Shown in pieces: positions 8,769-22,598 of a DNA stretch of 24,000 nucleotides (position 1 is its first letter; each line of letters starts with the position of its first letter). The notes beneath the pieces are model-generated. The model did no database searches and was not told where the DNA came from. It worked only from the letters and a program-made list of their open reading frames with translations. The DNA comes from an uncultured Bacteroidales bacterium (GTDB taxonomy: Bacteria; Bacteroidota; Bacteroidia; Bacteroidales; UBA10428). Made by a program: the position numbers and the translations under genes. Location: contig CAZWIU010000010.1 in assembly GCA_964634105.1 (NCBI GenBank), forward strand, positions 1 through 24,000, written 5' to 3'.

Positions 8769-9410
8769 ATGAAAAAGTTTTGTGCAATTACACCTACGCG
8801 GGGCGACCGGCCTCTATTCCTGGAACACTGTAAAATGCAAATGCAAAAACAGACAGTGCTGCCAGGCGATCATTTTATAATCGATTACCCGGCCCGATCA
8901 GGCGATTTCGACCTGGTTGAGAGATATCAGCAGGGCATAGCCCTGGCCATGTCAAAAGGCTATGATATTGTTTATTTTATCGAAGATGATGACTACTATC
9001 CGGATGACTATTTCGAACGCATGGACATTGGTAAGAACGATATTATCGGGCTTCCCTATACCTGGTATTATCATTTGGATACCAGGTCATATATACGCAT
9101 GAACCACCCCGGACGCTCATCCATGTTCTGCACAGGGCTTCGTATTTCCCGGTTTATGGATTTTGACTGGCCCGATAAGCTGACAATTTTTGTTGATATA
9201 CTGTTATGGAAACACCTGGCTTTACAGCGCTTTGAAATGATAGCTCCTTTCCCTATCGGGATAAAGCACAGCGCCGGACTTCGTGCCGGTAATGGCCATA
9301 ATCTTAACTTCCCGTTTACAGCTTCTGATCCAGGGTGTGATTGGTTAAAACATCACGTGAGGCCAGAATCATTTGAGTTTTATATGAACTATAAACAGGA
9401 GAATGCATGA
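8769..9410 (+). CDS. GT-A fold glycosyltransferase-like protein (DxD type)
   Basis: N-terminal ITPTRGDRP strand-loop followed by YDIVYFIEDDDYYP (EDDD 8982-8993). This is typical of GT-A nucleotide-sugar transferases. Substrate unknown. Confidence 0.55.
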   Translation: MKKFCAITPTRGDRPLFLEHCKMQMQKQTVLPGDHFIIDYPARSGDFDLVERYQQGIALAMSKGYDIVYFIEDDDYYPDDYFERMDIGKNDIIGLPYTWYYHLDTRSYIRMNHPGRSSMFCTGLRISRFMDFDWPDKLTIFVDILLWKHLALQRFEMIAPFPIGIKHSAGLRAGNGHNLNFPFTASDPGCDWLKHHVRPESFEFYMNYKQENA

Positions 9411-9682: not shown

Positions 9683-10207
9683 ATGCATAAAGAACAACGC
9701 GAATTCTGCGAACAAGTAAAAGAAAAGTTCCCGGAATATTTTACACAGAGCCGTGTAATTGATTTCGGTTCGCTCGATGTTAATGGAAACAATCGGTATT
9801 TATTCGATACGAGCTGCACTTATACAGGGGTTGATCTTGGCCCCGGTAAAAACGTTGATGTGGTCCTCTCAGCTCACCTGTTCACCCCGGAGCCAGGCTT
9901 TGAACCCGATGTCATTATCAGCACCGAAATGCTGGAACACGACAGGAACTGGGATCGGAGTCTCAGAAATATGCTGCACATGCTGAAACGTGGCGGCCTG
10001 ATTATAGTCACCTGTGCCACCGATGACCGTGAGGAACACGGAACCAGGGAACACAACCCACAGGATTCACCCTATACAAACGACTATTATCGCAACGTAA
10101 GCCTTTCAGAATTTAAGAAAGCTATCCACTGTGAATTAAAATTCCTGATACAATTTGAGATACGAAGGACGAAAAATGATTTACAATTCTGGGGGATAAA
10201 GCAATGA
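9683..10207 (+). CDS. Class I SAM-dependent methyltransferase
   Basis: Motif I VIDFGSLDVNG, post-I GVDLGPG, DVIISTEMLEHD and LKRGGLIIVT follow the Rossmann-fold MTase motif series. Confidence 0.8.
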   Translation: MHKEQREFCEQVKEKFPEYFTQSRVIDFGSLDVNGNNRYLFDTSCTYTGVDLGPGKNVDVVLSAHLFTPEPGFEPDVIISTEMLEHDRNWDRSLRNMLHMLKRGGLIIVTCATDDREEHGTREHNPQDSPYTNDYYRNVSLSEFKKAIHCELKFLIQFEIRRTKNDLQFWGIKQ

Positions 10208-10350
10208 AAAGTAAACCGATACAATGTGCTATTAGTGATTGGAGTTGTGTATATCATGCATGCATGACTGACCATTGCCAGAAGCATGAAGTATTGAAGC
10301 GCGTTACTTTAGCCGAATCTGGCGAACCAAAATGTAAAATAAAACTATGA
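10204..10350 (+). CDS. Small Cys/His-rich protein (48 aa), possible zinc-binding module
   Basis: Hand translation: MKSKPIQCAISDWSCVYHACMTDHCQKHEVLKRVTLAESGEPKCKIKL. ATGA overlap at both ends (10204-10207 and 10347-10350). Confidence 0.5.
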   Translation: MKSKPIQCAISDWSCVYHACMTDHCQKHEVLKRVTLAESGEPKCKIKL

Positions 10351-10769
10351 ATATAAAGGAATTCATTGCTTATATCCTGAATGATAAAAGCAATAAGCAT
10401 ATCAAACTTAATTTGGGAATAGTTCCAAGATCACAAGCTGAGAAAATAAAAAACATTACCGGCCTTAATGTTTTAGGTTATACTTCCCTGATTGATAATT
10501 ATGCAGTAAAACATACATTGGAGGAACATGGCACTGCTTCAGAAATCAAGCGCGGACAGGTTCCGGTAACACCTGAATGTTTTGAATTAATTCCAACCAT
10601 TTTGAGCAGCCCCGATAAAATAACAGACGGCGGATTAAGTGCAATAGGCCGTAGGGTAATTGTATTCAGCAAGCGGATAAACGGCATTGTGATTTATGTT
10701 GAAGAAGTAAGGACTAAGAGAAAAGAACTTGCACTACTTACTATGTACATTAAAAAAGCCCGCTGTTAA
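10347..10769 (+). CDS. Hypothetical protein; possibly a barnase/EndoU/RelE-like (PBECR-type) phage nuclease domain
   Basis: 140-aa ORF. NYAVKHTLEEHG ... VIVFSKRINGIVIYVEEVRTKRKELALLTMYIKK recalls the stand-alone domain found in polyvalent phage proteins. This is a memory-based call and the function is weakly supported. Confidence 0.6.
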   Translation: MNIKEFIAYILNDKSNKHIKLNLGIVPRSQAEKIKNITGLNVLGYTSLIDNYAVKHTLEEHGTASEIKRGQVPVTPECFELIPTILSSPDKITDGGLSAIGRRVIVFSKRINGIVIYVEEVRTKRKELALLTMYIKKARC

Positions 10770-10780
10770 GCGAGCTTTTA
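10758..10780 (+). terminator. Candidate intrinsic terminator
   Basis: GCCCGCT-gtta-AGCGAGC (one mismatch) followed by TTTTAT. The stop codon of the upstream CDS lies in the loop. Confidence 0.45.
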
Positions 10781-11007
10781 TAAACCACGAGTTATTGCCA
10801 TTGCTGGCCATTCTCCTAACGTCCGAAACGTCTTGGTTCAATGCAAATATACGAAAAAAATGAATACAAGTTTTAAATGTGTTTATTGCAACAAACCAAA
10901 TGAAACAATACATGTGCAGGGAACATGCTGAAGCAATGTTTAATGGTAAGAACATTTTAAGAGAAGACTTAATAAACCATAATTGCATACTAAAAACTTA
11001 AACTATT

Positions 11008-11541
11008 ATGAAACAGCGCATTGTAAAATTTTTGGAATTTAATGGTAACAATCTTTATTTTCTTGATGTAAATGGAAAATACTGGATTGCGGTAAAACCT
11101 GTATGTGAGGCACTTAATATTGAATATACCCGTATATTCAAGAACCTGAAAACAGATCCTATACTAGCACCAAGATTGGCTAAACTGCCAATGATGATCC
11201 CCGGTGATACCCAGCCCAGAAAATATGTTTGCATTCCTGAATACTTGATCTATGGCTGGATTTTTTCAATTCAGAGCGATTCAAGGGAACTATTGTCATA
11301 TAAGCTAGAATGTTACGAAGTATTATTTAATCACTTTCACGGAGCTATTACCGGACGCACTGATTTATTACGCGATAAGGCCAGACTTGTAACAGAAAGA
11401 CTAAGGCTTGAAAACAGCCTGAAACAATTACCGGAATATAAGCAACTGGAACAAATTAAAATTGAAGAATCGCGCATTGGGAAAGCGCTTGTGCGCAATG
11501 ATAACGAGATCATCAATCTTCAGCTCGAACTCTTTCAATGA
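11008..11541 (+). CDS. Phage antirepressor-like protein (P22_AR N-terminal domain type)
   Basis: YWIAVKPVCEALNIEY ... QPRKYVCIPEYLIYGWIFSIQSDS...YKLECYEVLFNHF parallels the conserved blocks of the P22 Ant N-terminal domain. C-terminal coiled coil. Confidence 0.7.
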   Translation: MKQRIVKFLEFNGNNLYFLDVNGKYWIAVKPVCEALNIEYTRIFKNLKTDPILAPRLAKLPMMIPGDTQPRKYVCIPEYLIYGWIFSIQSDSRELLSYKLECYEVLFNHFHGAITGRTDLLRDKARLVTERLRLENSLKQLPEYKQLEQIKIEESRIGKALVRNDNEIINLQLELFQ

Positions 11542-12188
11542 CCGATAATAAAATATTTCCCTATCTTTGTGGAGCTAGATTCATTAAAATTTTAGAAGCT
11601 CGTTCCTCAAATGAGACTGATAAAAAGGTACAGGAGCGGCATACCGGTGTAAGTCCGGCAGTCCTATCTGAGCTTCGCTTTGATGAGTCTAGCAGTGACC
11701 GCTCCCTTTTGTTTCATGAAAATGCTAGACTTATGGACACAAACAAGCCCTTTTCCATTTACATCGTTGAACGTAAAGATTGGTTCCAATCCAGCCAGTG
11801 CGTAATTATCGAACAAACCAGGAGCGACAGCAGTACGCTTTTTGGTTTAGGCACAATTACTGAACAGATCAGGTTAACCCCGCAGCAGCTGCTATCCCTT
11901 AAAAAAGAGATTGACAGGCTGCTTGATTTTCTTTTTCCCCAGGAGCGTGAACTACGTAAACCTCGTATTGGCCTTGTTAAGGTTTATTCACGCAACTGGC
12001 TTCAAAGCGAAATGAACCGGTTGTTAAAACTGGAACGTTACGAAGATGCTGAAGCGCTCAAATATTTGATCCGCATTATTTCTGACACTGAAAAGAGCAA
12101 ACCAAATGAAAACAATACATGTGCTGGGAACCGGCCCAGGAATAAAAAATTACAAGTACAGCGGGAACATAAGGATAGGTGTGAATGA
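11538..12188 (+). CDS. Hypothetical protein
   Basis: 216-aa ORF, ATGA-coupled to the antirepressor gene (11538-11541). Its last 27 codons overlap the next gene. Confidence 0.65.
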   Translation: MTDNKIFPYLCGARFIKILEARSSNETDKKVQERHTGVSPAVLSELRFDESSSDRSLLFHENARLMDTNKPFSIYIVERKDWFQSSQCVIIEQTRSDSSTLFGLGTITEQIRLTPQQLLSLKKEIDRLLDFLFPQERELRKPRIGLVKVYSRNWLQSEMNRLLKLERYEDAEALKYLIRIISDTEKSKPNENNTCAGNRPRNKKLQVQREHKDRCE

Positions 12189-12633: not shown

Positions 12634-12702
12634 TGCTGCTTTATTCAATGAAATGAGTTATTTTTAATTACTTTTTTATAATAATCGTCTTATAATTTTT
12701 TA

Positions 12703-12730
12703 CCGTCGGAGAAATCCGGCGGTTTTTTTT
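12703..12730 (+). terminator. Intrinsic terminator closing the early/modification operon
   Basis: CCGTCGGA-gaaa-TCCGGCGG (one mismatch) followed by T8 (12723-12730). Confidence 0.7.
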
Positions 12731-12777
12731 ATATGTGCAAAGTACATTTTTTTAGTTTGCAGTATACCCGTTTTTTA

Positions 12778-13270
12778 TGTTAACGTGTTAAGAGAGCCTT
12801 GTAATTAATTGAATAATAATAAAATAAGCCTTAACATAAACTACATTTTTACGTTAAGATCGTGTTAAGAAGTGTTAAGATTATGATTAACAAATCATTA
12901 CCCTGTAAGCATTGATTTTACTAACGTTAACGTGATATCAAAATTCTGAATGTGTTGGTATTACTTAAGTTGCGGGTAAAAAAAGACTCTTAACCCTTTT
13001 ATTCAGGAAAGTCGATTTATGTTAAGACCTTATTCATTGTGACACAGTTCGTTACAGGGAGTCGTTAACACGTTAACACGAAATTTGACATTGCTGAGAA
13101 AGGGGTATTTTAGCATTTTATCATTTTCCTGGATCAAAAAAAGTGTTCGAAATAGTGCATGTAACTGTTAAAAAAGTGATAGCGGACCTTATCTTTTTAT
13201 ATTATGGTATATACCCCAAGAAAAAATCAACTTTTTGCCAACTTTTCATTAACTATTTTTTCGTTAACAG
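12778..13270. repeat. Iteron-like array: 11 copies of the octamer (C/T)GTTAA(C/G)(A/G)
   Basis: TGTTAACG 12778; TGTTAAGA 12786, 12863, 12873, 13020; CGTTAAGA 12852; CGTTAACG 12925; CGTTAACA 13063, 13071 (tandem) and 13262; reverse copy at 12829-12836. Three copies at 12852-12880 are spaced about 10 bp apart. No ORF over 23 codons in 12634-13413. Confidence 0.75.
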
Positions 13271-13413
13271 ATTGATTTTTAATAAATAACCAATTCATTG
13301 CTGAATTTCCGATTTTAACTTTTCATCAACTATTGAAAAAGTGAATAAATACTTCAGGTGATTCGTTGTATTTCATTCTGATTCCTTGCATTTTTCATGG
13401 AAATAATTAGCTT

Positions 13414-13632
13414 ATGGAAGGATTATTCATAACTACATCCGATATCCAGCTGATCCATAATTGCTGTTCCAAAACTGCACAAAAAAAGATGCAGCTTATC
13501 AGGGAAGTCCTTTGTAAAAAACCGCATCAGAAAGTAACTATTAAAGAATACTGCGATTTTGAAGGGATCGGTATGGAAGATTTCCAGGAGAAAAAAGCCG
13601 AACTATACCGAATCAATAAGCAGGCCAGGTAA
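13414..13632 (+). CDS. Small DNA-binding protein (excisionase/MerR-like HTH type common in Bacteroidota mobile elements)
   Basis: ITTSDIQLIHNCCSKTAQKKMQLIREVLCKKPHQKVTIKEYCDFEGI fits the pattern of short HTH regulators (T..d...i.g.s..tA.r....ir..l.K...q.vTi.eyc.y). It is the first gene after the iteron gap and sits directly upstream of the virion block. Confidence 0.55.
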   Translation: MEGLFITTSDIQLIHNCCSKTAQKKMQLIREVLCKKPHQKVTIKEYCDFEGIGMEDFQEKKAELYRINKQAR

Positions 13633-13664: not shown

Positions 13665-13695
13665 AACATTTGCATTCATACAACGCGCAAATGTT
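13665..13695. promoter_or_regulatory. Perfect 9-bp inverted repeat covering the start codon of the first virion-block gene
   Basis: AACATTTGC (13665-13673) - 13 nt - GCAAATGTT (13687-13695). The ATG at 13691 lies inside the right arm. Confidence 0.5.
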
Positions 13696-14134
13696 TCGGA
13701 AATTAGTACCTTTTTTGCTTCTGGGCGGCGTAGCGGCTGCATTTCTTCTTACGGCTAAAAAGCTTAAGAAACTGGATACAGCCGTTACCCGCCTGCAATA
13801 TAAAAGTCTTTCCCTCACTACAATCCGCTTTGAACTCGACCTGGCCGTTACTAATCCTGGCCAGCAATCAGTAAACATACAGGAGATTGAGCTTGCCTTG
13901 GTATACCGAGGCGACACAATGGCCTCAATGAAAAAGACGGGTATTAATATTCCTGTAGGCGCCGAGAAGACAATTAAAATCACAAACATCACCGCAGATG
14001 TAAGCACATTAAGCGCCCTGAGCCAAATTCTTTCGGCGTTCCTGGGGGACACCGCCAAAACAATGACTGTAAGCGGAACAATCAAAGCCGACGGCTTTAG
14101 CTATCCGGTAAACGAGACAATAAATATTTCGTGA
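13691..14134 (+). CDS. Membrane-anchored LEA_2 / NDR1-HIN1-like domain protein
   Basis: The ORF-track start at 13670 is TTG; the ATG at 13691 gives MFRKLVPFLLLGGVAAAFLLTA (TM anchor). The remainder (FELDLAVTNPGQQSVNIQEIELALVYRGDTMA...IPVGAEKTIKI...VSGTIKADG) follows the LEA_2 beta-sandwich pattern. Confidence 0.6.
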   Translation: MFRKLVPFLLLGGVAAAFLLTAKKLKKLDTAVTRLQYKSLSLTTIRFELDLAVTNPGQQSVNIQEIELALVYRGDTMASMKKTGINIPVGAEKTIKITNITADVSTLSALSQILSAFLGDTAKTMTVSGTIKADGFSYPVNETINIS

Positions 14135-14135
14135 T

Positions 14136-14411
14136 ATGAGTACCAAAAAAACAAATAAGCCTGCAACAAAAATACAGGACAAGACAAAGCCCGCAGCTAA
14201 AGCCCAGGGTGAAAAAGCAACACGAGCCATTCCGGAAATTGAACCTATACGGACAGTGTACGATCCAAAGAACCGGGAAGTGATCATCGAACGCAGGGGT
14301 GAAAAATACCGGGTCAGAAAACCCCGTACTGCTTTTGAAAGTCCCTGGCTGAGCAAAGCCACAGCTGAAAAGGTATTCAATGTTAAAGCCAATTGTTCGC
14401 AGAATCAATGA
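14136..14411 (+). CDS. Small highly basic protein (candidate nucleic-acid-binding virion protein)
   Basis: 91 aa, about a quarter Lys+Arg by my count (MSTKKTNKPATKIQDKTKPAAKAQ...RRGEKYRVRKPR). Its stop overlaps the next ATG as ATGA (14408-14411). Confidence 0.7.
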   Translation: MSTKKTNKPATKIQDKTKPAAKAQGEKATRAIPEIEPIRTVYDPKNREVIIERRGEKYRVRKPRTAFESPWLSKATAEKVFNVKANCSQNQ

Positions 14412-16099
14412 ATAAGAACAGCTCACATACAATCCCTCCCTGGGTTAAAAATGTCTGGTTTGGGACAAACGACCTGGTCACTATAGCCAATAAAACAATA
14501 CGCCCGGCTGCAGCAAGTGATAAGCTGATAAAACTTAATTATAATACGGATGATATTATTGCGCTCATTCAGAATGCACATAAAAAGGGACTTGCCGATA
14601 CAAAGCTGTTTGCTTCCATGATACCAGGGAATTCTGTGGCTGTTTATTGTTCCAATCTCTGGCATTTTTTAAAAGATAACATTCGCTACCAGGTCGATCC
14701 GGTTGGTGATCAGTGGGTGAAATCTCCGGCCCGTGTCTGGTATGATAAGGTATGCGATTGTAAAAGCTTTGCAATCTTCGTGGGTACTGTACTGGCAAAC
14801 AAGGGGATCCCGTTTAAGTACCGTTTTGTATCCTTCAATCCCGATAATCCCATGGTCACGCATGTGTATGTTATAGTGATGCTGGGTAGCCGTGACTATT
14901 TACCAATGGATGTTGTATACCATTCATTTAACGCTGAAAAACCATTTTATCATAAAAAAGATATCATCATGGCAGGACTTCATTATTTGGCTGGCATAGG
15001 CAAGGCCACAGAAAAGATTTTTAACCTGGGCAACAAAGATATTTCACAAATTACAGACGGTGAGATGGATTTACTAATTGCCCGCGACAGGATGGAAACA
15101 GAAAAGGCGCTCGTCGAGAAAATACGAGGAATAGGATCCATTAAAGCAGAGCGATACCAGGATTCAATTGATATGCTCGACGATGCAATATCCGCAGTAA
15201 ATGCTTATCAAACCGGCAAGATCGGTGATATCGATACGGAACTTGCGTTAATATCTAACCAGGCCAGCCGGGGTGAATACCGTATGGCCGACCAGGTAGC
15301 AGGTATTGGTACGTTGCCTGGAAGGCAGGCATATCGTATGAAAAGACGAAAGCAATTGCAGGCAAAGCGGAGCGCCATAAAACGTAAACTTACTCCAGCC
15401 CAGAAAGCGAATATCTGGGGTATCCCGGAACTTTCCGGCATAGGTAAAACAAAGGGATTGCTTAAAAAAGTGGCTGGAAAAGTGAAAACAGCGACTAAGA
15501 AAATAGCAAAAGGAACTGCTAAAGTTGTAAAGACAGCCGTGAAGGTTGTAACTGCGCCGGCCCGATTGGTAGCAAAAGGAATTCTGGAAATTACATTACC
15601 CAAAGCATCTCCTTTCTTCTTATACCTGTTTATTAATGACCAGGCAATTCTCAATAAGGCTCCGGATAAGGTAAGGCAGAAACGTAAGAAAGCGGAGAAC
15701 GTTGCCAATTTCATTGTAAATGGTATCGGTATGAAGCGGGAACATTTCATGGGCATTGTCCGCAACGGCAATCTGAAACACTATGGAAAACAGCCCGAAA
15801 AGGTCATCGATGAAATGATGAAGGGAAAAGTATCCGGGATCGGGGTGATAGGAGCTGCCATTACAGCAGTAACAGAAATCATCACCAAGATACTCCAACT
15901 GGTAAAGAAAAACAAAACAAAAGACCTGGACATTAGCGCTGCTGATGGCCCGGACGCATCCGACTGGGCGAATCTGAGCAGCTCGGAAAAATCTGATCTG
16001 GGAAATGAAATTAAGTCCCAGGCTGATGACAGCGGAACCGATGGGGAAGGGCCATACGATACAGGAGGAAAATCCATCTGGGATTCCTTCGGAGGATAG
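14408..16099 (+). CDS. Large multi-segment virion protein: N-terminal transglutaminase-like Cys-His-Asp domain, six [LIV]xGIG motifs, Lys-rich segment, hydrophobic segment, acidic tail
   Basis: The ORF-track start at 14393 is TTG; the ATG at 14408 is ATGA-coupled. VCDCKSFAIFVGTVLANKGIPFKYRFVSF....THVYVIV......LPMDV matches the transglutaminase-like core (Cys codons 14753-14755 and 14759-14761, His 14861-14863, Asp 14909-14911). GIG motifs at 14993, 15128, 15302, 15437, 15722 and 15836. Confidence 0.85.
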   Translation: MNKNSSHTIPPWVKNVWFGTNDLVTIANKTIRPAAASDKLIKLNYNTDDIIALIQNAHKKGLADTKLFASMIPGNSVAVYCSNLWHFLKDNIRYQVDPVGDQWVKSPARVWYDKVCDCKSFAIFVGTVLANKGIPFKYRFVSFNPDNPMVTHVYVIVMLGSRDYLPMDVVYHSFNAEKPFYHKKDIIMAGLHYLAGIGKATEKIFNLGNKDISQITDGEMDLLIARDRMETEKALVEKIRGIGSIKAERYQDSIDMLDDAISAVNAYQTGKIGDIDTELALISNQASRGEYRMADQVAGIGTLPGRQAYRMKRRKQLQAKRSAIKRKLTPAQKANIWGIPELSGIGKTKGLLKKVAGKVKTATKKIAKGTAKVVKTAVKVVTAPARLVAKGILEITLPKASPFFLYLFINDQAILNKAPDKVRQKRKKAENVANFIVNGIGMKREHFMGIVRNGNLKHYGKQPEKVIDEMMKGKVSGIGVIGAAITAVTEIITKILQLVKKNKTKDLDISAADGPDASDWANLSSSEKSDLGNEIKSQADDSGTDGEGPYDTGGKSIWDSFGG

Positions 16100-16158
16100 T
16101 ACACAGTCCCCGGACTGTTGTATCCGGGATCATATATGTCAAACTAAAATTTTGAGAA

Positions 16159-16347
16159 ATGGCAAAACTTAAAATGCTTAAGTACCCCCGGAAACCAAAA
16201 GCGGGGGCCAGTGTGGCCACAATGGAAAGGTGGCTGAAACGAAAGGCTGAGATCGACCGGGAAAATTCCCGTCGAAAGAGCCAGAATAAAAAGGCTGAAA
16301 CGCTGCGGAAACGCATCAGCGGAATAAGCAGATGTGCAACCTATTAA
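16159..16347 (+). CDS. Very basic 62-aa protein (candidate DNA-condensing/core protein)
   Basis: About one third Lys+Arg by my count (KYPRKPK...WLKRKAEIDRENSRRKSQNKKAETLRKR). C-terminal ISGIS (16321-16329) resembles the GIG motif. Confidence 0.65.
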   Translation: MAKLKMLKYPRKPKAGASVATMERWLKRKAEIDRENSRRKSQNKKAETLRKRISGISRCATY

Positions 16348-16355
16348 TTACTATT

Positions 16356-16748
16356 ATGGCAAAGAAATTTGATTTCAAACGAATCGCTATGAAAGCAACC
16401 GGCGCTGCCAGTGGCGGTGCTGTGGCTTTAGCATCAAATAAGGTGCTTGGTAAATTCAATCCAAAGATCCGGGCTATCGCGAAGATAGCTGCGGGAGCTA
16501 TACTTCCGGAGATTGCTCCAAAATCTTCCTTTGTAAATGATATGGGTTGTGGTATGATCGGGGCCGGAGCTGCTGAGTTAACCGAAGCGCTGGTTCCTGC
16601 TCTGGCCGGTGAAACAGTATCCGGGATAGGTGAAGACAAAGGCTATGTCATTGATGAAGAATACAGCCTCGAAGGGATCGCTGCTGATCCTTCAAAGGAG
16701 GATAACCCCGTGCTGGGGGATATTCCTTCTGATGTTGAAGACTGGTAG
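16356..16748 (+). CDS. Gly/Ala-rich hydrophobic protein with acidic C-terminal tail
   Basis: The ATG at 16356 (MAKKFDFK) lies 8 nt after the upstream stop; an alternative ATG at 16332 overlaps that gene. ATGAASGGAVALAS...IAAGAILPEIA...GMIGAGAAELTEALVPALAG, then VSGIG (16623-16631), then EDKGYVIDEEY...DVEDW. Confidence 0.7.
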   Translation: MAKKFDFKRIAMKATGAASGGAVALASNKVLGKFNPKIRAIAKIAAGAILPEIAPKSSFVNDMGCGMIGAGAAELTEALVPALAGETVSGIGEDKGYVIDEEYSLEGIAADPSKEDNPVLGDIPSDVEDW

Positions 16749-16829
16749 TCTCAGCCTCTTAGATAAAAGGTACTAATTCTCAGAAACGTATTGCGCCATT
16801 AAGAGAATAGTCACTAAAAAAAGAGAAAA

Positions 16830-17612
16830 ATGAAGACTTTTATTAAAATCATTGCTTTTACAGGTTTGATCATTGCCTGTTTTGTACTCCAGGGTGCTTT
16901 CGATTGTAACGCAGTTTTTGGAGCACTACATGACACGTTATCCATCGATAATCTTACCGTTGCCGGTTCAGCTGTTATTGGTATAGGGGCTTTCAGGGAC
17001 AGGGCCATTTTTAAAGGTCTCCGGAATCAATTTCCCGGAACTGTTCCCCAGCCGGGATCCTACCTTCGTATTGAACAGGTGCTAAGTAATAGCAGCGGTA
17101 AATATGAATTCCGTTTAAAAAAGACTAACACAGAAAAAATACAGGAGGTTAAACTTGAACAAAACGACATTTTTGTCATCACTGACCTGGCTGTATACCT
17201 TCTGAAAGCAGATACCACAAAGGAGGGCAAGGATGTACTTCAGACGTTTGTCAACCAACAGGTTTTCCCTGCCGTTACCGGTTTTACTCCGGGACACCTG
17301 GAAGCTATATATAACGGAAAACTAAGCCTGAAAGTCGGACAGATCAATCATATCGAAAACCTCTCTATGCAGTATTTCAGGAATGTTCCTGAAACACAGC
17401 AGTCGGCAGGAACTAACCTTTCGGAATATGACATTAAAAACGCTGTCTATCCGCTGGGTTCAAACCTGAATTTGCGGGGGAATGATGATGTGATTGTAAC
17501 AATCGAATTCCCAACATTCACCGGGATGCAGATTGCTGCTGTCGCTGCTAATACTGAACACAGGATCGTATTCCATCCATACGGTTATTTAATGCGCAAC
17601 GCTGCTAAGTAG
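16830..17612 (+). CDS. Abundant-looking beta-rich virion protein (candidate major capsid/coat component) with lipoprotein-type signal peptide
   Basis: MKTFIKIIAFTGLIIAC has n- and h-regions and a lipobox (L-I-I-A-C, Cys17). VIGIG at 16980-16988. The rest alternates short beta-like stretches. It is followed by the strongest terminator in the window. The capsid assignment is inference only. Confidence 0.75.
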   Translation: MKTFIKIIAFTGLIIACFVLQGAFDCNAVFGALHDTLSIDNLTVAGSAVIGIGAFRDRAIFKGLRNQFPGTVPQPGSYLRIEQVLSNSSGKYEFRLKKTNTEKIQEVKLEQNDIFVITDLAVYLLKADTTKEGKDVLQTFVNQQVFPAVTGFTPGHLEAIYNGKLSLKVGQINHIENLSMQYFRNVPETQQSAGTNLSEYDIKNAVYPLGSNLNLRGNDDVIVTIEFPTFTGMQIAAVAANTEHRIVFHPYGYLMRNAAK

Positions 17613-17639
17613 TTGTTTAATTGTAGGTCAGTTAGGGTT

Positions 17640-17677
17640 AATAAGCCGGGTTCGGCACGCTTGCCCGGCTTATTTTT
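17640..17677 (+). terminator. Strong intrinsic terminator after the 260-aa protein gene
   Basis: AATAAGCCGGG (17640-17650) pairs perfectly with CCCGGCTTATT (17664-17674), followed by a T-run to 17677. Confidence 0.8.
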
Positions 17678-17695
17678 CACTTAAAAATTACGTCA

Positions 17696-18082
17696 ATGGA
17701 TATAGTTCTGAATAATCTAGAAAATATTGAGCTGGTTGTAGACAATATAAATAAAACCAAGTTCAATTTCCCGGACATAGAAAACATCCGTGGGAAGAAA
17801 ATAAAAGTGATCGATATACCTTCAGTCAATGAAGTAACGGTTACACCCTTAGGGAAAGCCAATATCAACGACACAGTATATGGTAAGTCATTCCTTGTAT
17901 TGAATGTTGCCGGATCCGAAAAGATCAACCGTATCCCGCTTAAGAGCCTGAACCCTTTTGCCAATAATACCCGCTTGTTTTTTAACGACCTGGTAGTCGA
18001 TTGGACACGATCATACATCGAGGTAGGAAGCACAGCGGGCTTGGTGGCAAATGAAGCTTTCTTTCTGAATGTATTCTTTTAA
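17696..18082 (+). CDS. Small beta-rich virion protein
   Basis: 128-aa ORF in the virion block with an alternating hydrophobic pattern (KIKVIDIPSVNEVTVTPLG, SFLVLNVAGSEKINRIPL, EAFFLNVFF). No motif recognised. Confidence 0.7.
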   Translation: MDIVLNNLENIELVVDNINKTKFNFPDIENIRGKKIKVIDIPSVNEVTVTPLGKANINDTVYGKSFLVLNVAGSEKINRIPLKSLNPFANNTRLFFNDLVVDWTRSYIEVGSTAGLVANEAFFLNVFF

Positions 18083-18093
18083 CCTGAAATAAA

Positions 18094-18801
18094 ATGATCA
18101 TTGGCAGCGATAAAGTGATCGAGTGGTTAAGGACGAATGAAACACCTTACTGGCGGATCCTGAATACGGAAAAGGGCGGTGTGATATTCGAGGGATTGAA
18201 TAGTAAGGAAGAACTTACACTTAATGATTCGGTTACCCGTTTGGAGCAGGCATTGGCTATGCTAAGCGCGGGAACCTATTATATGGATGCCTGGGATAAG
18301 TTTAAAGCGTCGAACAATGACCGTTTTAAAACACGTTTTGTGATAACCGGAAATGAAAATCAAAATTCACCAGGTGGAATCGGTAATTTTCAGGGTATGG
18401 TCCCCCAGGCAAGTATCCAGGAACAGATAAAAAAGGCACTGGATGACTATAAACGCGACCAGGAGAACGAGAGGTTACGAACTGAAGTCAACCAGCTGAA
18501 TGAAGAAATCAACAACACATTCTACCGTGTTGTCAAAAGGCTGGAACCGGTGTTAGGGCTTGCAGGAGTTGCCATTGAGGATTTATACCCGGAAATGAAA
18601 CAGATCCGGATTACCGGGCCAAATCAGGATTTAAAAAGCGATGAAATGAATATCCAGGATCAGCAACGATTAGAAAATGCCTTTGAGTCATGGGGTAAAA
18701 AGGATTCCGATTGCATTACCCTGGTTGAAAAGATTGCCAGGCTTGCAGAAAGTGATCCGGCAACCTATGCCATGGCCAAAAAAATCTTAATGAGCAAATA
18801 A
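18094..18801 (+). CDS. Virion-block protein with central acidic coiled coil (scaffold-like)
   Basis: 235 aa. PGGIG at 18376-18384, followed by QEQIKKALDDYKRDQENERLRTEVNQLNEEINN. TAATG overlap with the next gene at 18799-18803. Confidence 0.75.
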   Translation: MIIGSDKVIEWLRTNETPYWRILNTEKGGVIFEGLNSKEELTLNDSVTRLEQALAMLSAGTYYMDAWDKFKASNNDRFKTRFVITGNENQNSPGGIGNFQGMVPQASIQEQIKKALDDYKRDQENERLRTEVNQLNEEINNTFYRVVKRLEPVLGLAGVAIEDLYPEMKQIRITGPNQDLKSDEMNIQDQQRLENAFESWGKKDSDCITLVEKIARLAESDPATYAMAKKILMSK

Positions 18802-19688
18802 TGGGATTCAAAAGCGATAGGATCAATAAGGCAGCTGTACCAAAGGGAACCAGCCTTAACTACAGGGAGAAGCCAACTACTTCATCCAAAATCCTGCATA
18901 CTTCGCAAGCGGGAAAATTTGCTGGAAGGACTACCGGGGATTATTTGGATCAGTCTGACGGTCGCTGGTGGCAGGTTATCCTTACGGGAACGAACGCACT
19001 TGCCTGGGTAAGGGAAGATGTTACCAGTTTTCAGAAACCGCCCAGTGATCCTGCATTAAATGAAAAGGATGTCCAGGGTATCGTTGATAAGCTGGTAAAC
19101 AATGATATTGAAGTATATCACTCGCTATTACGTTCCAGCGCTCTTTTAAAGGATGCTGCAGCAAAAGGTAAGGATGTATCATCCTTTCAGAAAGCACATG
19201 CTCAGCTCAATGCACGGCTGGAAGCCAGGCAGGATAAAATAAAAAACTCGAAGCTCTTATCCTGGAAAGAAGGAATAAAGAAAGGATATGAAAACCTTAA
19301 GAAGAGTTATATCAACTATGTAACAAGTCCTGAATATCATGCAGCCGCAATGATGAATGTTTACGGGATCGGCTCGATAACAGGTGTAGTGATTGGAGCT
19401 GTAATTGGCGCAGGTTTGATCGTAGGTGCTTATTTTGCTTTTAAACCGAAATATGATGAAAGCACTGCCGATTTAAAAATATCAAAAGATCTGGAAGCTG
19501 CCCTGGCGACATTAACGCCAGAAAAAGCAGCTGAAGTAAAAGCCGATCTTGAAAAACAAATCGATACCGCATACAACCAGGGAAAAACTGACCAGTTCAT
19601 ATCAACCAATCTCAAATGGATTGGCTTTGCAGCTTTGGGGTTCTTTGGGATAAGCTTTTTGATGAATCAAAGCAGAAGGAATGAATGA
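18801..19688 (+). CDS. SH3b-like domain protein with two transmembrane helices
   Basis: LNYREKPTTSSKILHTSQAGKF...DGRWWQVILTGTNALAWVREDV fits the bacterial SH3 pattern. VYGIG (19365-19373) directly precedes the TM helix SITGVVIGAVIGAGLIVGAYFAF. Second TM: WIGFAALGFFGISFLM. Confidence 0.75.
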   Translation: MGFKSDRINKAAVPKGTSLNYREKPTTSSKILHTSQAGKFAGRTTGDYLDQSDGRWWQVILTGTNALAWVREDVTSFQKPPSDPALNEKDVQGIVDKLVNNDIEVYHSLLRSSALLKDAAAKGKDVSSFQKAHAQLNARLEARQDKIKNSKLLSWKEGIKKGYENLKKSYINYVTSPEYHAAAMMNVYGIGSITGVVIGAVIGAGLIVGAYFAFKPKYDESTADLKISKDLEAALATLTPEKAAEVKADLEKQIDTAYNQGKTDQFISTNLKWIGFAALGFFGISFLMNQSRRNE

Positions 19689-20277
19689 GCAGCAATTTAT
19701 CAATACATTCTGGCCCTATGCAAAACAGGTGCAAACCAAATACAGGATACCTGCATTAGTGGCACTGGCGCAAGCTGCTCTTGAATCGGGCTGGGGAAAA
19801 TCAACACCTGGCCATATGCTTTTCGGGATTAAAGCAGGATCTTCATGGAAGGGAGAGAAGCAATTGTTAACTACCTCCGAGTATCATGACACAAACACCG
19901 TTAAATACCCGGAGATAATCTCGATAGAAAAGCTGGATACCGGCCGGTATAAATACAAGGTAAAGACCTGGTTCCGTAAATACAATTCATTTGCAGAAAG
20001 CTTTGATGATTATGGAAAACTACTTTCCGGATCCGAAAGGTATAAAAACGCATTCACCTATTCGGATCCTTACAAGTTTGCTGCTGAAATAGCAAAAGCA
20101 GGATACTCAACATCAAAAGATTATTATACTCAACTGGCAAAAATAATCAACGGGCTACAGAAAGAAAGCCCGACGAATCAATACATAAAAGCAATTGCAG
20201 CAGGTGTAATGCTGGGGTTGGTAATAAACTTAAAAGATCAACACGACTATGCGAAAGCCAATAGGAGTAAGCTATAA
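19681..20277 (+). CDS. GH73 N-acetylglucosaminidase-type peptidoglycan hydrolase with C-terminal hydrophobic segment
   Basis: IPALVALAQAALESGWGKS....MLFGIKA is the glucosaminidase (FlgJ/GH73) signature (catalytic Glu codon 19783-19785). C-terminal IKAIAAGVMLGLVINL. ATGAATGA overlap with the upstream gene. Confidence 0.85.
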   Translation: MNEQQFINTFWPYAKQVQTKYRIPALVALAQAALESGWGKSTPGHMLFGIKAGSSWKGEKQLLTTSEYHDTNTVKYPEIISIEKLDTGRYKYKVKTWFRKYNSFAESFDDYGKLLSGSERYKNAFTYSDPYKFAAEIAKAGYSTSKDYYTQLAKIINGLQKESPTNQYIKAIAAGVMLGLVINLKDQHDYAKANRSKL

Positions 20278-20522: not shown

Positions 20523-20768
20523 ATGGCATTCGATAGCAAACTCATAGAGCTGAACCTGAAGGCGGATCTGGTCGATGTAGTAAGCGATACCCTCATATAT
20601 GAAGGATTTTTCCTGCCCGGTAAGAGTGGTTATACTGATCCGGTATGTAAGATTGTACGCCGCCAGCAAACAGGAACCGTCTGGGCCACCATGTATGCCG
20701 ACGGTGATGAGAATTACGACAACGTCTGGAATAACAGGGCAGCCTTAAGCTATTCACATTTAATTTAA
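20523..20768 (+). CDS. Hypothetical small protein
   Basis: 81-aa ORF starting 2 nt after the previous stop. Confidence 0.65.
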   Translation: MAFDSKLIELNLKADLVDVVSDTLIYEGFFLPGKSGYTDPVCKIVRRQQTGTVWATMYADGDENYDNVWNNRAALSYSHLI

Positions 20769-20774
20769 TGATAT

Positions 20775-22598
20775 ATGCCGGCAAAATATGATCCCTTCAG
20801 TGGCCGCTTATATCTTCTGCCGTCAATTAAGGCCGATGATATCGATGACCAGGCAATCACTGAAGAAAAACTCAATACAAATGTCACGAGTAAACTGCTA
20901 AATTTCGGGAGTGCTTTCTCTCTCGAAGAAATCGGCGAATTTGATACTCTGAAAAAGTCTCATTACAATGCCCTGGCTATCCATGCCGTGAATGGTTCTA
21001 CCCCTTGCTGTTATTACTATGAAGGAACATATAAACGGTTCTATTTCACCTATTATGGATCCTACAAGGATGCTGCCGGTACAAATAAAACAGCCGGGAA
21101 GTATGTAAACTATGTAGCTTACTATGATCTTCAAACCGAAGTATTATCGCGGGATGTTGAAATTCCACACGGTTTTCCAACCAGTACAGATCAGCACAAT
21201 ATACCAACCCTGATAGTGGCCGATGATGGACACATTCTATTATTCCAGGAATCGCTTTTGCCCTCCGGGGCGCATAACAGTTCAATCGAAGTATGGCGAT
21301 CAAATGCAGCTGAAACCATCGAAGATCCTTCTAGTCCTGGAACACATTATTTTACAAAAGTTGCCGATTTCGGATACCCGATAACCGGTACATACCGGAT
21401 CTCGTATCCTAAAATTATAAAGGGATCTGCAACTGGTGAATTATTTATGCAGGCCCGTGGATACGATGCTGCTAATGGTCACTCAAACCTTGTATTTGCT
21501 AAATCAATCGATAATGGCCAGAACTGGACTGATCTTTCGGGCAATGCAAATCTTTTTACTCTGGTTGGCGATTGCAACCCAACCTTTGACGATTGTGACT
21601 GGTATTTTTATTCTACCTCAATGATCGCTCCCAGGACAGCCGGGTTAAATGTGCTAACCTATTGCAATGAAGGGCCAACAGGAACCAATACAACCAGTGG
21701 CCAGGCTGCTGCCTCTCGTTATAAGACGATGCACTATCTATATAGCACTGATGGAATCACCTGGGGGAATATTGTATGGAAAAATTCTGCCGGTGCATCC
21801 GGGTTTAGTAAGAATATTCTTACCTCAGGAGCTATCACCAGGGCAGAATTAGATGCTAATTTCCTTGTTTACGATGCTAACCCTGTTCAGAATGTAAGTT
21901 TAACGCCTTTTAGTACCGGTGTCGACTCAGCCGGAAATCCTTATATCTTATGGCAATATTTCACCAGGCCGGTCACCAAAACAGGGGATGCAAAAAACCT
22001 GCTGAATGTTTATTTTACCTACCATAATGGGACTACCTGGATACATGTCGATATCAGCTCCCTGGTGCTTACAAAAAATAATATTCCGGATAGCATCCCT
22101 TCGATCTATTATAACCGTGGCGATATGATAGCCTATTCGCCTGGTCACATAGATATTATGCTATATCGTTATGTAGGTAAGGAAAATGTCAACCTTAAGA
22201 AGTATAGCGCGATTAGTTCCGATGCGGACCGTGTTATCGGTGGAATTTATATTGTTAATACAACACAGACAGATCATTTTGGCACAGGTATAATTGCCGG
22301 CGATATCATACAAATTACAGCTTCGACACCCTCATGCGATGCAAATAATACCTTGCTGGCATTCGATACCGAGTTTGTTATTTATCGTACCCAGAATTAC
22401 GGACTATCGTGGCAGCTTTATAAACGTTTACTGCAAAAAAGCGATTCGCTGTTCGGTATGAATTCAAATAATGCAGCGATCAATTTCAATTACCTGGACA
22501 GTAAAAAGCTGGCTCTTTTGCTTGGGATCCCTGCTTCATATAATGGGACGGCTTTAACACACATGTATTTTAAGTTATTCTATGGTCAAATCGATTAG
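20775..22598 (+). CDS. BNR/Asp-box repeat (sialidase-like beta-propeller) protein; candidate receptor-binding spike or fibre
   Basis: Asp-boxes SIDNGQNW (21504-21527) and STDGITW (21744-21764), plus degenerate TQNYGLSW. At 607 aa it is the largest late ORF and sits just upstream of the lysis genes. Confidence 0.75.
   Translation: MPAKYDPFSGRLYLLPSIKADDIDDQAITEEKLNTNVTSKLLNFGSAFSLEEIGEFDTLKKSHYNALAIHAVNGSTPCCYYYEGTYKRFYFTYYGSYKDAAGTNKTAGKYVNYVAYYDLQTEVLSRDVEIPHGFPTSTDQHNIPTLIVADDGHILLFQESLLPSGAHNSSIEVWRSNAAETIEDPSSPGTHYFTKVADFGYPITGTYRISYPKIIKGSATGELFMQARGYDAANGHSNLVFAKSIDNGQNWTDLSGNANLFTLVGDCNPTFDDCDWYFYSTSMIAPRTAGLNVLTYCNEGPTGTNTTSGQAAASRYKTMHYLYSTDGITWGNIVWKNSAGASGFSKNILTSGAITRAELDANFLVYDANPVQNVSLTPFSTGVDSAGNPYILWQYFTRPVTKTGDAKNLLNVYFTYHNGTTWIHVDISSLVLTKNNIPDSIPSIYYNRGDMIAYSPGHIDIMLYRYVGKENVNLKKYSAISSDADRVIGGIYIVNTTQTDHFGTGIIAGDIIQITASTPSCDANNTLLAFDTEFVIYRTQNYGLSWQLYKRLLQKSDSLFGMNSNNAAINFNYLDSKKLALLLGIPASYNGTALTHMYFKLFYGQID

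Follow-up and report, generated by a model that had tools for sequence, protein, structure and literature searches.

What, if anything, reads a short glycine-isoleucine-glycine (G-I-G, or GIG) signal that recurs in a series of neighbouring proteins of a putative bacterial virus? The question is raised by a 24,000-nt stretch of DNA from an uncultured Bacteroidales bacterium (NCBI GenBank assembly GCA_964634105.1, contig CAZWIU010000010.1, positions 1 to 24,000 of the forward strand; hereafter, the window), in which the motif φ-x-G-I-G (φ, an aliphatic residue) is repeated in a 568-aa putative virion polyprotein and in four proteins encoded downstream of it. From the letters of the window alone, the motif had been proposed to be the cleavage code of a maturation protease (the original prediction). 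Based on chance tests, homologue alignments, and structural models, we give an approximately even chance to the reading that the virion polyprotein's own transglutaminase-like cysteine protease cuts at φ-x-G-I-G. The features of the polyprotein, with conservation taken from an alignment of 40 homologues of 37-63% identity (A1), are:

14393-16099, + strand: 568-aa putative virion polyprotein as given in the list of open reading frames (ORFs), with an N-terminal protease-like domain and six segments bounded by φ-x-G-I-G
14393-15001, + strand: residues 1-203, domain of transglutaminase-like cysteine-protease fold, recognised by fold matches and an invariant triad
14759-14761, 14861-14863, and 14909-14911, + strand: codons of the putative triad Cys123, His157, and Asp173, respectively (A1)
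14987-15001 (GIG 14993-15001), + strand: site 1, LAGIG, directly after the protease-like domain; candidate self-release site
15122-15136 (GIG 15128-15136), + strand: site 2, IRGIG, in an inter-helix loop, both Gly columns at least 90% conserved in A1
15296-15310 (GIG 15302-15310), + strand: site 3, VAGIG, with G299 and G301 at least 90% conserved and a basic segment of variable length (+11) following
15431-15445 (GIG 15437-15445), + strand: site 4, LSGIG, before a Lys-rich segment (+18) and kept only in the closest relatives
15716-15730 (GIG 15722-15730), + strand: site 5, VNGIG, followed by MK; I-G-M-K is strongly conserved and the first Gly varies (G/A/I/S/T)
15830-15844 (GIG 15836-15844), + strand: site 6, VSGIG, directly before a hydrophobic helix and an acidic tail

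We note that the public gene call begins the polyprotein at ATG 14408 (563 aa) and that the TTG start of the ORF list (14393) is probably misplaced.

Translation of the ORFs recovered all ten G-I-G tripeptides of the original prediction, in five proteins; nine are preceded by [LIVM]-x, the exception being PGGIG, and the variant ISGIS (G-I-S, 16321-16329) is present in a 62-aa basic ORF. As had also been stated, there is only one other G-I-G in the window (~7,080 residues in 42 ORFs taken as genes), namely FEGIG in a 72-aa ORF (13414-13632), and codons vary between copies, so that the signal lies at the level of the peptide and a DNA-level repeat is ruled out. Shuffling residues within each protein gave a mean of 0.72 GIG, in agreement with the rough earlier estimate of less than one, and the ten observed copies were reached in none of 20,000 shuffles; for [LIVM]xGIG, nine copies were observed against a shuffle mean of 0.17. 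Because the motif was picked after looking, we also counted, in 5,000 shuffles, the most frequent tripeptide of any kind, which occurred at most eight times and, with shuffling inside 30-residue blocks that preserve local composition, at most nine times. The global, local, and any-tripeptide shuffles rule out a composition artefact. Internal duplication was likewise ruled out as the source of the motif: the GIG-delimited pieces of the polyprotein, with the motif removed, are mutually dissimilar in pairwise local alignments (z < 1.4), and we conclude that the motif arose or was kept independently in unrelated contexts.

More than 150 homologues of the polyprotein were found. A tripeptide count over 120 homologues puts GIG first (387 copies, of which 95% have I/V/L/M at -2), while each G-x-G with another middle residue is at least six times rarer, giving the logo [I39 V32 L13 M11]-[S/A/R/N]-G-I-G-[S/A/M/D]-[I/L]. 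In A1, the GIG copies occupy aligned columns whose Gly and Ile residues either never vary or are conserved to at least 90%, and variable-length regions and whole-module duplications separate the copies. At site 6, G477, I478, and G479 are invariant or nearly so and the modelled helix begins at the motif; distant clades have a GIG directly 5' of the segment equivalent to the Lys-rich segment behind site 4. The original prediction placed the motifs at junctions between unlike segments, and this is borne out in the polyprotein, where the GIG-delimited pieces, besides being unrelated to each other, differ sharply in net charge (+6, -1, -5, +11, +18, +4, and -7). In the AlphaFold model of the 568-aa protein (predicted local distance difference test score, pLDDT, 84), an alpha/beta domain extends to ~residue 190 and only helices follow, with all six GIGs in inter-helix loops. 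The linker carrying site 1 has pLDDT < 50 (residues 189-201 of the P0001 model) and is the protein's only internal linker below this value that holds a motif copy.

Two further observations concern the C-terminal part of the polyprotein. Some homologues (P0007, P0017, P0021, and P0023; A1 columns ~830-1000) have a C-terminal unit in duplicate: the hydrophobic A-P-Y-F-L-Y-L-F stretch is followed by a basic stretch, then by a GIG, in most cases as [IVL]-x-G-I-G, and lastly by a hydrophobic helix. The unit bounded by GIG thus acts as a module that can be duplicated. The extreme C-terminus, which follows a variable acidic region, is conserved family-wide as S-G-G-[RK]-S-I-W-[DN]-S-L, with GGKSIWDSFGG as the window version (16054-16099), and some clades end in G-W-C or C-x-C instead.

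The genes downstream of the polyprotein are:

16159-16347, + strand: 62-aa basic protein, 32% of it Lys+Arg, in which ISGIS (16315-16329) lies close to the C-terminus
16332-16748, + strand: 138-aa Gly/Ala-rich hydrophobic protein with VSGIG (16617-16631; GIG 16623-16631) at the junction to an acidic tail
16830-17612, + strand: 260-aa jelly-roll-like candidate capsid protein, in which VIGIG (16974-16988; GIG 16980-16988) ends a 53-residue hydrophobic N-terminal extension
17696-18082, + strand: 128-aa conserved module protein, motif-free, used as internal control; candidate second capsid protein
18094-18801, + strand: 235-aa protein with PGGIG (18370-18384; GIG 18376-18384) between an N-terminal domain and a charged region
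18801-19688, + strand: 295-aa membrane protein with VYGIG (19359-19373; GIG 19365-19373) directly before the first transmembrane (TM) helix
19681-20277, + strand: glucosaminidase-type lysozyme with a hydrophobic C-terminus, motif-free (Pfam PF01832, E 4e-29; PHROG endolysin)

It had been suggested that homologues of each motif-bearing protein be aligned to see whether the motif is kept while its flanks drift. This is the case for the 568-aa, 295-aa, and 138-aa families and fails for the 260-aa and 235-aa families. Specifically, in the 295-aa family φ-x-G-[IV]-G is aligned just before the first TM helix in 14 of 19 clusters, with indels in the flanks, and the other five clusters have ISGVP, ISAIP, NISG, or YGISG; in the 138-aa family, G-[ILM]-G stands at the aligned junction in 14 of 19 orthologues. 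None of 20 orthologues of the motif-free 128-aa protein has G-[ILVM]-G. The Chitinophagaceae equivalent of the small basic protein begins MAKKKVSGIGA(L/I)DRQ, placing a complete motif near its N-terminus. In the 260-aa protein, GIG lies at the end of a segment with pLDDT < 50 (residues 38-52), and eight homologues have no N-terminal extension and start just past the position of the window GIG (M-N-R-D-R compared with G-I-G-A-F-R-D-R), supporting that the motif marks the real boundary of a dispensable extension. With respect to the 235-aa protein, the charged region behind the motif reads like a coiled coil. We also note that the start of the 138-aa protein is probably misplaced: its homologues begin M-(A)-K-K-F-D-F, which corresponds to an internal ATG at ~16356 (MAKKFDF), and with this start the overlap with the 62-aa gene disappears.

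The same distribution is seen beyond the window. Across 58 related loci, GIG was observed 96 times in the polyprotein against 14 expected and 86 times in the next 4.5 kb against 28 expected, with 76% aliphatic residues at -2 in the latter region; the upstream replication genes gave 48 observed and 33 expected, and the genes farther downstream 23 observed and 25 expected, with 26% aliphatic at -2. The motif enrichment is confined to the polyprotein and the next ~4.5 kb and does not extend to the replication or distal genes.

The motif is found next to a domain with the features of a cysteine protease. In A1, D-C-K (Cys123), His157, and Asp173 are invariant, and the order Cys-His-Asp is that of the transglutaminase-like superfamily. 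The domain is modelled with pLDDT about 90 (AlphaFold) and has the alpha/beta core of the transglutaminase-like/papain-like superfamily. Foldseek matched it with probability 1.00 to 3isr, 9crn (TglA), 4u65_E (LapG), 3kd4, and 4xz7, at E-values of only 0.016-0.1; the fold neighbours also include BDI_1141, PNGase, CPR-C4, TgpA, PeiP/PeiW, and transglutaminases (overall, probabilities ~1.0 and E 0.016-0.6), such that proteases (LapG, CPR-C4), transglutaminases, PNGase, and cell-wall isopeptidases are mixed among the matches. Transglut_core (Pfam PF01841) matches the window protein with E 0.012 and 16.3 bits, below the curated 23-bit cut-off, and precomputed matches to PF01841 and/or PF04473 exist for many homologues. 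A phmmer search with residues 1-203 returned 3,557 clusters at 50% identity (E <= 1e-3), in which the domain is nearly always N-terminal; the domain family is large.

The tie between this domain and the motif is seen at site 1, the most widely kept copy, which appears as [LIVM]-x-G-[IV]-G in relatives of only 25-29% identity (MAGIGR, VSGIGQ, LSGVGY). Site 1 is kept in 43 of 99 diverse representatives in which the domain is fused to further sequence, compared with none of 13 stand-alone domain proteins, which end before site 1 or run into a membrane anchor; two of the stand-alone proteins (P0197 and P0221) have I-S-G-[IV]-x before the anchor, with the last Gly missing. In a Chitinophagaceae clade (loci L043, at 9974-11950, L054, L055, and L056), the domain is a separate gene of 169-200 aa and the next gene begins M-[ST]-[RK]-I-x-Y-[LI]-G, eight residues before the site-1 position; L048, which also belongs to this clade, has both in fused form. 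Because loci with a separate domain keep the GIG enrichment in their other module proteins (e.g. in L043, five observed and 0.52 expected), the motif is independent of covalent linkage to the domain.

We propose the following mechanism for a motif that is enriched and positionally conserved at junctions within a particle module and adjoins a protease-like fold with an invariant triad. The protease (Cys123, His157, Asp173) would recognise the linear motif [IVLM]-[SARN]-G-I-G and would, in a first step, free itself at site 1 directly behind its own domain. In a second step, the five remaining copies in the chain would be cut, yielding small peptides, of which two are strongly basic (+11 and +18) and are candidate DNA-condensing or membrane-binding core peptides, together with a piece comprising the hydrophobic helix and the acidic tail. 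In a third step, the protease would act in trans to remove the acidic tail of the 138-aa membrane protein, to cut the 295-aa protein between its soluble N-terminal part and its membrane anchor, to split the 235-aa protein at its linker and, in the lineage of the window only, to remove the 53-residue hydrophobic extension of the jelly-roll capsid protein. With regard to the bond that would be cut, a papain-like S2 pocket would favour G-I-G↓x (↓, cleaved bond), with Ile at P2 and Gly at P1, and the length of the short 260-aa homologues agrees with this, which weakly favours that register; the alternative, adenain-like register would be φ-x-G-I↓G. Because some stand-alone proteins have I-S-G-[IV] without the last Gly and ISGVP variants occur, both registers stay under consideration.

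Several points weigh against cleavage by the polyprotein's own protease. That the proteins are cut at all, at which bond, in which order, and when are all things we infer. The GIG of the 260-aa protein is missing from all 15 other homologues returned and is thus a feature of the window lineage only; in the 235-aa family, GIG stands at the aligned linker in only 7 of 20 orthologues, most of the others having x-G-[FIV] or A-I. Pro follows G-[IV] in some variants (ISGVP), and most proteases would not cut the bond preceding such a Pro. In the gut clade (L004-L020) and in several distant clades, the triad is intact but a GIG occurs only at site 1, indicating that the multi-site pattern is an elaboration in part of the family. 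No alternative enriched recognition-like tripeptide was found in the gut clade L004-L020 or in L024, L026, L035, L050, and L057, where the top tripeptides are of low complexity or isolated (KKK, YLP), leaving a co-evolution of protease and motif unsupported. Sites 2-6 lie in confidently modelled helix-loop-helix turns (pLDDT 76-93 over 10-residue blocks), which fits a structural role; PeiP and PeiW are among the fold matches, such that the domain could be a cell-wall isopeptidase for entry that has nothing to do with the motif; and we found no experimentally studied member of the family. The original prediction of a cleavage code is therefore upheld in part: there is a conserved peptide signal beside a protease-like domain with an invariant triad, while the 260-aa site is unconserved, the 235-aa site is kept in a minority, and the code is not uniform across clades.

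Two other explanations deserve weight. In the first, the motif is structural and remains uncut: φ-x-G-I-G would be a helix-capping turn or hinge whose Ile packs into the protein or the membrane, and whose glycines let long helices fold back or re-extend, for instance in an internal protein that unfolds into a DNA-delivery conduit. The six polyprotein copies sit exactly in loops between helices in the AlphaFold model, five of them in well-predicted regions, two copies start Gly-rich hydrophobic helices, and the stand-alone proteins P0197 and P0221 retain most of the motif before a membrane anchor, all as expected for such a role. Yet a hinge needs neither an invariant Ile nor a fixed residue at -2. 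Here, one five-residue pattern, with an aliphatic residue at -2 in 95% of copies, is found repeatedly in sequence surroundings that are unrelated and in proteins that are not homologous; disorder is predicted for some of these surroundings (site 1, the 260-aa extension, and residues 6-10 of a small basic protein), and the enrichment survives shuffles that preserve local composition. We consider a purely structural motif unlikely.

In the second, the motif is read by a host protease or by an assembly or membrane-targeting factor, and the domain is a virion-borne cell-wall hydrolase for entry. The pseudomurein endoisopeptidases PeiP and PeiW among the fold matches agree with this, as do the clades that combine an intact triad with a single GIG, and the domain's relative in SSIP-1 (Salisaeta icosahedral phage 1; see below), gp34, is annotated as a structural protein in a virus without GIG enrichment. 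On the other hand, the most conserved copy of the motif lies directly behind the domain and is missing when the domain stands alone; the module already has a glucosaminidase or SLT lysozyme, and the window an M15 peptidase as well; and no other protease was found in Pfam and PHROG scans, which covered 21 of the window's proteins and did not include small ORFs. Moreover, genes outside the module, including those on large host contigs, have GIG at background frequency, giving no sign of a host-wide motif. A recogniser other than the polyprotein's protease also seems improbable to us. Finally, that the motif is a matter of chance or a by-product of composition, for which the moderate richness of the five proteins in Gly (6-11%) and Ile (6-9%) could be cited, has practically no probability left and is excluded, refuted by shuffles in which the observed count was reached in 0 of 20,000 global and 0 of 5,000 local trials and no tripeptide attained ten, and by conservation at aligned positions in hundreds of homologues.

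We next compared the proposed protease with known systems. The original prediction had pointed out that the motif matches the consensus (M/I/L)-X-G-X↓G of the adenovirus protease; the match holds formally, with 95% of the 387 sites having I/V/L/M at -2, but fold and triad order differ, and for this reason the resemblance is formal only. Like adenain (MEROPS C5, clan CE), the protease proposed here would be packaged with the particle, would trim several structural and core proteins that are unrelated to each other, at a short motif in which Gly occupies P2 and the fourth residue before the cut is aliphatic, and would produce small basic core peptides; adenovirus pVI reportedly carries IVGL↓G. 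Adenain, which also cuts at (M/I/L)-X-G-G↓X, has the catalytic order His-Glu/Asp-Cys, in contrast to Cys-His-Asp on a transglutaminase-like fold here, and no adenain or Ulp1-like structure was found among the listed Foldseek matches, nor was there a Pfam match to one. Given the different fold class and the opposite catalytic order, the domain is not a member of the adenain family. It also differs in that Ile is nearly fixed at a position where adenain accepts any residue, in being fused to its substrates, and in its bacterial host. All in all, cleavage by the polyprotein's own protease is the best single explanation of the motif, about as likely to be right as wrong, with adenain as an analogy only.

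By fold, the nearest characterised site-specific protease is LapG, which shares the fold class and the Cys-His-Asp triad (Foldseek rank 5, probability 1.00). LapG is a site-specific protease that cuts a small-residue motif, the di-alanine in LapA. The best PDB sequence match of the domain, around the catalytic Cys, is 4fgo ('Periplasmic protein'; E 0.47), which we take to be Legionella LapG. The similarity is at the level of the fold, without significant sequence similarity; the motif differs; and LapG is a periplasmic cellular enzyme controlling an adhesin, neither viral nor fused to its substrate.

Within cultured viruses, the sole relative found is gp34 of SSIP-1 (JN880423, 21296-22210), a homologue of the protease-like domain according to hhalign (probability 97.9, E 3.5e-13), which pairs the D-C and H-V-Y motifs; gp34 is annotated as 'structural protein', and its Cys-His transglutaminase-like domain is not annotated in the GenBank record. 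SSIP-1 is described in a review as tailless and membrane-containing. Unlike the window protein, gp34 has 304 aa and is not a GIG-punctuated polyprotein. The structural proteins of SSIP-1 show no GIG enrichment, and its gp45 and gp46, compared as capsid-protein candidates, have no profile similarity to the 260-aa family; SSIP-1 was therefore dropped as a model despite the homology of gp34.

Two other groups of proteases are comparable in part. Prohead proteases (HK97 gp4 type, T4 gp21, phiKZ gp175) are also phage proteases that trim several head proteins at a short motif (L/I-x-E for T4 gp21, S/A/G-x-E for phiKZ gp175). They are serine proteases of herpesvirus-assemblin fold that accompany HK97-fold capsids, and no Pfam or PHROG match to prohead proteases of the HK97, T4, or ClpP types was found in the module or among the other scanned proteins. 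The C39 peptidase domains of ABC transporters, which process double-glycine leaders, and the LXGG-specific viral papain-like proteases/deubiquitinases belong to the papain-like cysteine proteases, and their recognition involves an aliphatic P4 together with Gly at P2. Unlike the domain described here, they need Gly-Gly at P2-P1, whereas here an Ile lies between the glycines, and the module offers neither an ABC transporter nor a ubiquitin-like context.

The candidate capsid protein may give an indication of the type of virus. The AlphaFold model of the 260-aa protein is a beta-sandwich (pLDDT 73), for which the SPV1 capsid protein, P23-77 VP16/VP17, and iridovirus and picornavirus jelly rolls scored best in the PDB, although only with E 0.008-0.05 and TM-scores of 0.2-0.5, such that a relation to the tailless, membrane-containing viruses with vertical single jelly rolls (P23-77, SH1, SPV1-like) is no more than possible; matches in BFVD, a set of predicted viral structures, have E 1e-5 to 1e-4. 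The proteins of unknown function form a block (13670-19688) that is preceded by a 780-bp gene-free stretch (12640-13410) and followed by the lysozyme and then by a 607-aa BNR_4 protein and an M15 peptidase. Elsewhere, the window encodes a DUF5906 primase-helicase (5332-7659), two methyltransferases, an Ant-like protein, and a PBECR3 nuclease. Across related loci, the gene order is kept: an LEA_2-like membrane protein, a small protein, the polyprotein, a ~55-aa basic protein, a ~135-aa Gly/Ala-rich protein, proteins of ~210-260, ~128, and ~230 aa, a ~300-aa two-TM protein, the lysozyme and, further on, a large receptor-binding-like protein. Metagenome contigs as long as 65 kb contain an identical copy of the element between genes that look cellular; many homologue-bearing contigs are 24-26 kb, and others are embedded in large Bacteroidota contigs (Bacteroidales, Chitinophagaceae). 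A relative in a cultured strain is a prophage of Lacibacter cauensis CGMCC 1.7271 (L043; NZ_VLLE01000005.1, about 478-499 kb), and more distant relatives are present in IMG/VR.

Among the window proteins scanned against Pfam and PHROG, neither a terminase nor a portal was detected, nor an HK97-type capsid protein or a packaging ATPase, and the Pfam listings of apparently near-complete 24-26 kb relatives (L059, L060, and L061) are likewise without a packaging ATPase, terminase, or portal. The DUF5906 primase-helicase is the only P-loop-type protein among the scanned proteins, which include no FtsK/HerA-type packaging ATPase beside the capsid genes, and a search for the Walker A pattern in 17 ORFs gave only a loose match in an 81-aa ORF (20523-20768). 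No integrase was seen among the proteins scanned, the leftward ORFs being outside that scan, and the window contains no tRNA genes or Rfam families. Of ten module proteins scanned against PHROGs, only the lysozyme matched, the match of the polyprotein being non-significant. The 568-aa and 260-aa proteins have no tblastn match (E <= 1e-3) among 50,697 deposited phage genomes, and the family is therefore without a close deposited relative. In the literature searched, we came across neither an account of this virus group nor a report of a phage maturation protease of transglutaminase-like type or of cleavage at a GIG motif. From moderate evidence, we infer that a ~25 kb temperate Bacteroidota virus of an undescribed family, probably tailless and membrane-containing, has its particle-forming module at 13670-20277. 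Going further, we tentatively raise the possibility that tailless, membrane-containing jelly-roll viruses form an abundant lineage in Bacteroidota and mature their particles in the fashion of adenoviruses, using a packaged polyprotein with its own cysteine protease, that cuts at φ-x-G-I-G set basic core peptides free and shorten proteins of the membrane and the capsid, and that this system evolved independently of adenain and converged on a similar recognition rule; as a whole, we regard this scenario as doubtful.

To our knowledge, maturation proteases with defined cleavage motifs are known in bacterial viruses only for tailed phages; tailless phages with a membrane (e.g. PRD1, PM2, and P23-77) offer no example known to us, and we are not aware that the transglutaminase-like family has been recognised as a source of viral maturation proteases. 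Virus-encoded maturation proteolysis as such is known, and what would be new here is the protease family, the motif, and the virus group. If the proposal is correct, it would provide, as far as we know, the first example outside the tailed phages of a bacterial virus with a maturation protease and a cleavage code, an independent case of the adenovirus-style solution in which a protease yields basic core peptides, and a function for thousands of 'hypothetical' transglutaminase-like proteins. If the cleavage code holds, the mature virion proteome of a large uncultured virus family would be predictable from sequence alone, and a compact protease specific for a five-residue site would be a possible tool. 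Because a related prophage resides in the cultured L. cauensis strain, the question is directly testable.

Three observations concern other parts of the element. First, the large distal protein is wholly different between relatives: in the window it is a BNR_4 beta-propeller (20775-22598), in L059 (19153-21744) it combines a beta-helix with laminin-G, and in L060 (17629-21216) it has an F5/F8 type C domain and a faint match to the SprB family, which is the pattern expected of swappable receptor-binding proteins. Second, a 213-aa ORF (8769-9410) located amid DNA-modification genes has no Pfam or PHROG match and contains a D-D-D-Y-Y stretch; as a guess from these letters, it may encode a glycosyltransferase-like modification enzyme. 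Third, the gene-free stretch 12640-13410, which lies 5' of a small helix-turn-helix-like gene and the particle module, contains a cluster of CGTGTTAA(C/G) repeats, with exact copies at 12784, 12861, 13064(-), and 13072(-); a further copy, at 12871, has one mismatch. The 24-kb window has no other exact match, and the four lie within about 300 bp; the repeats may be candidate sites for a late-gene regulator, or an origin.

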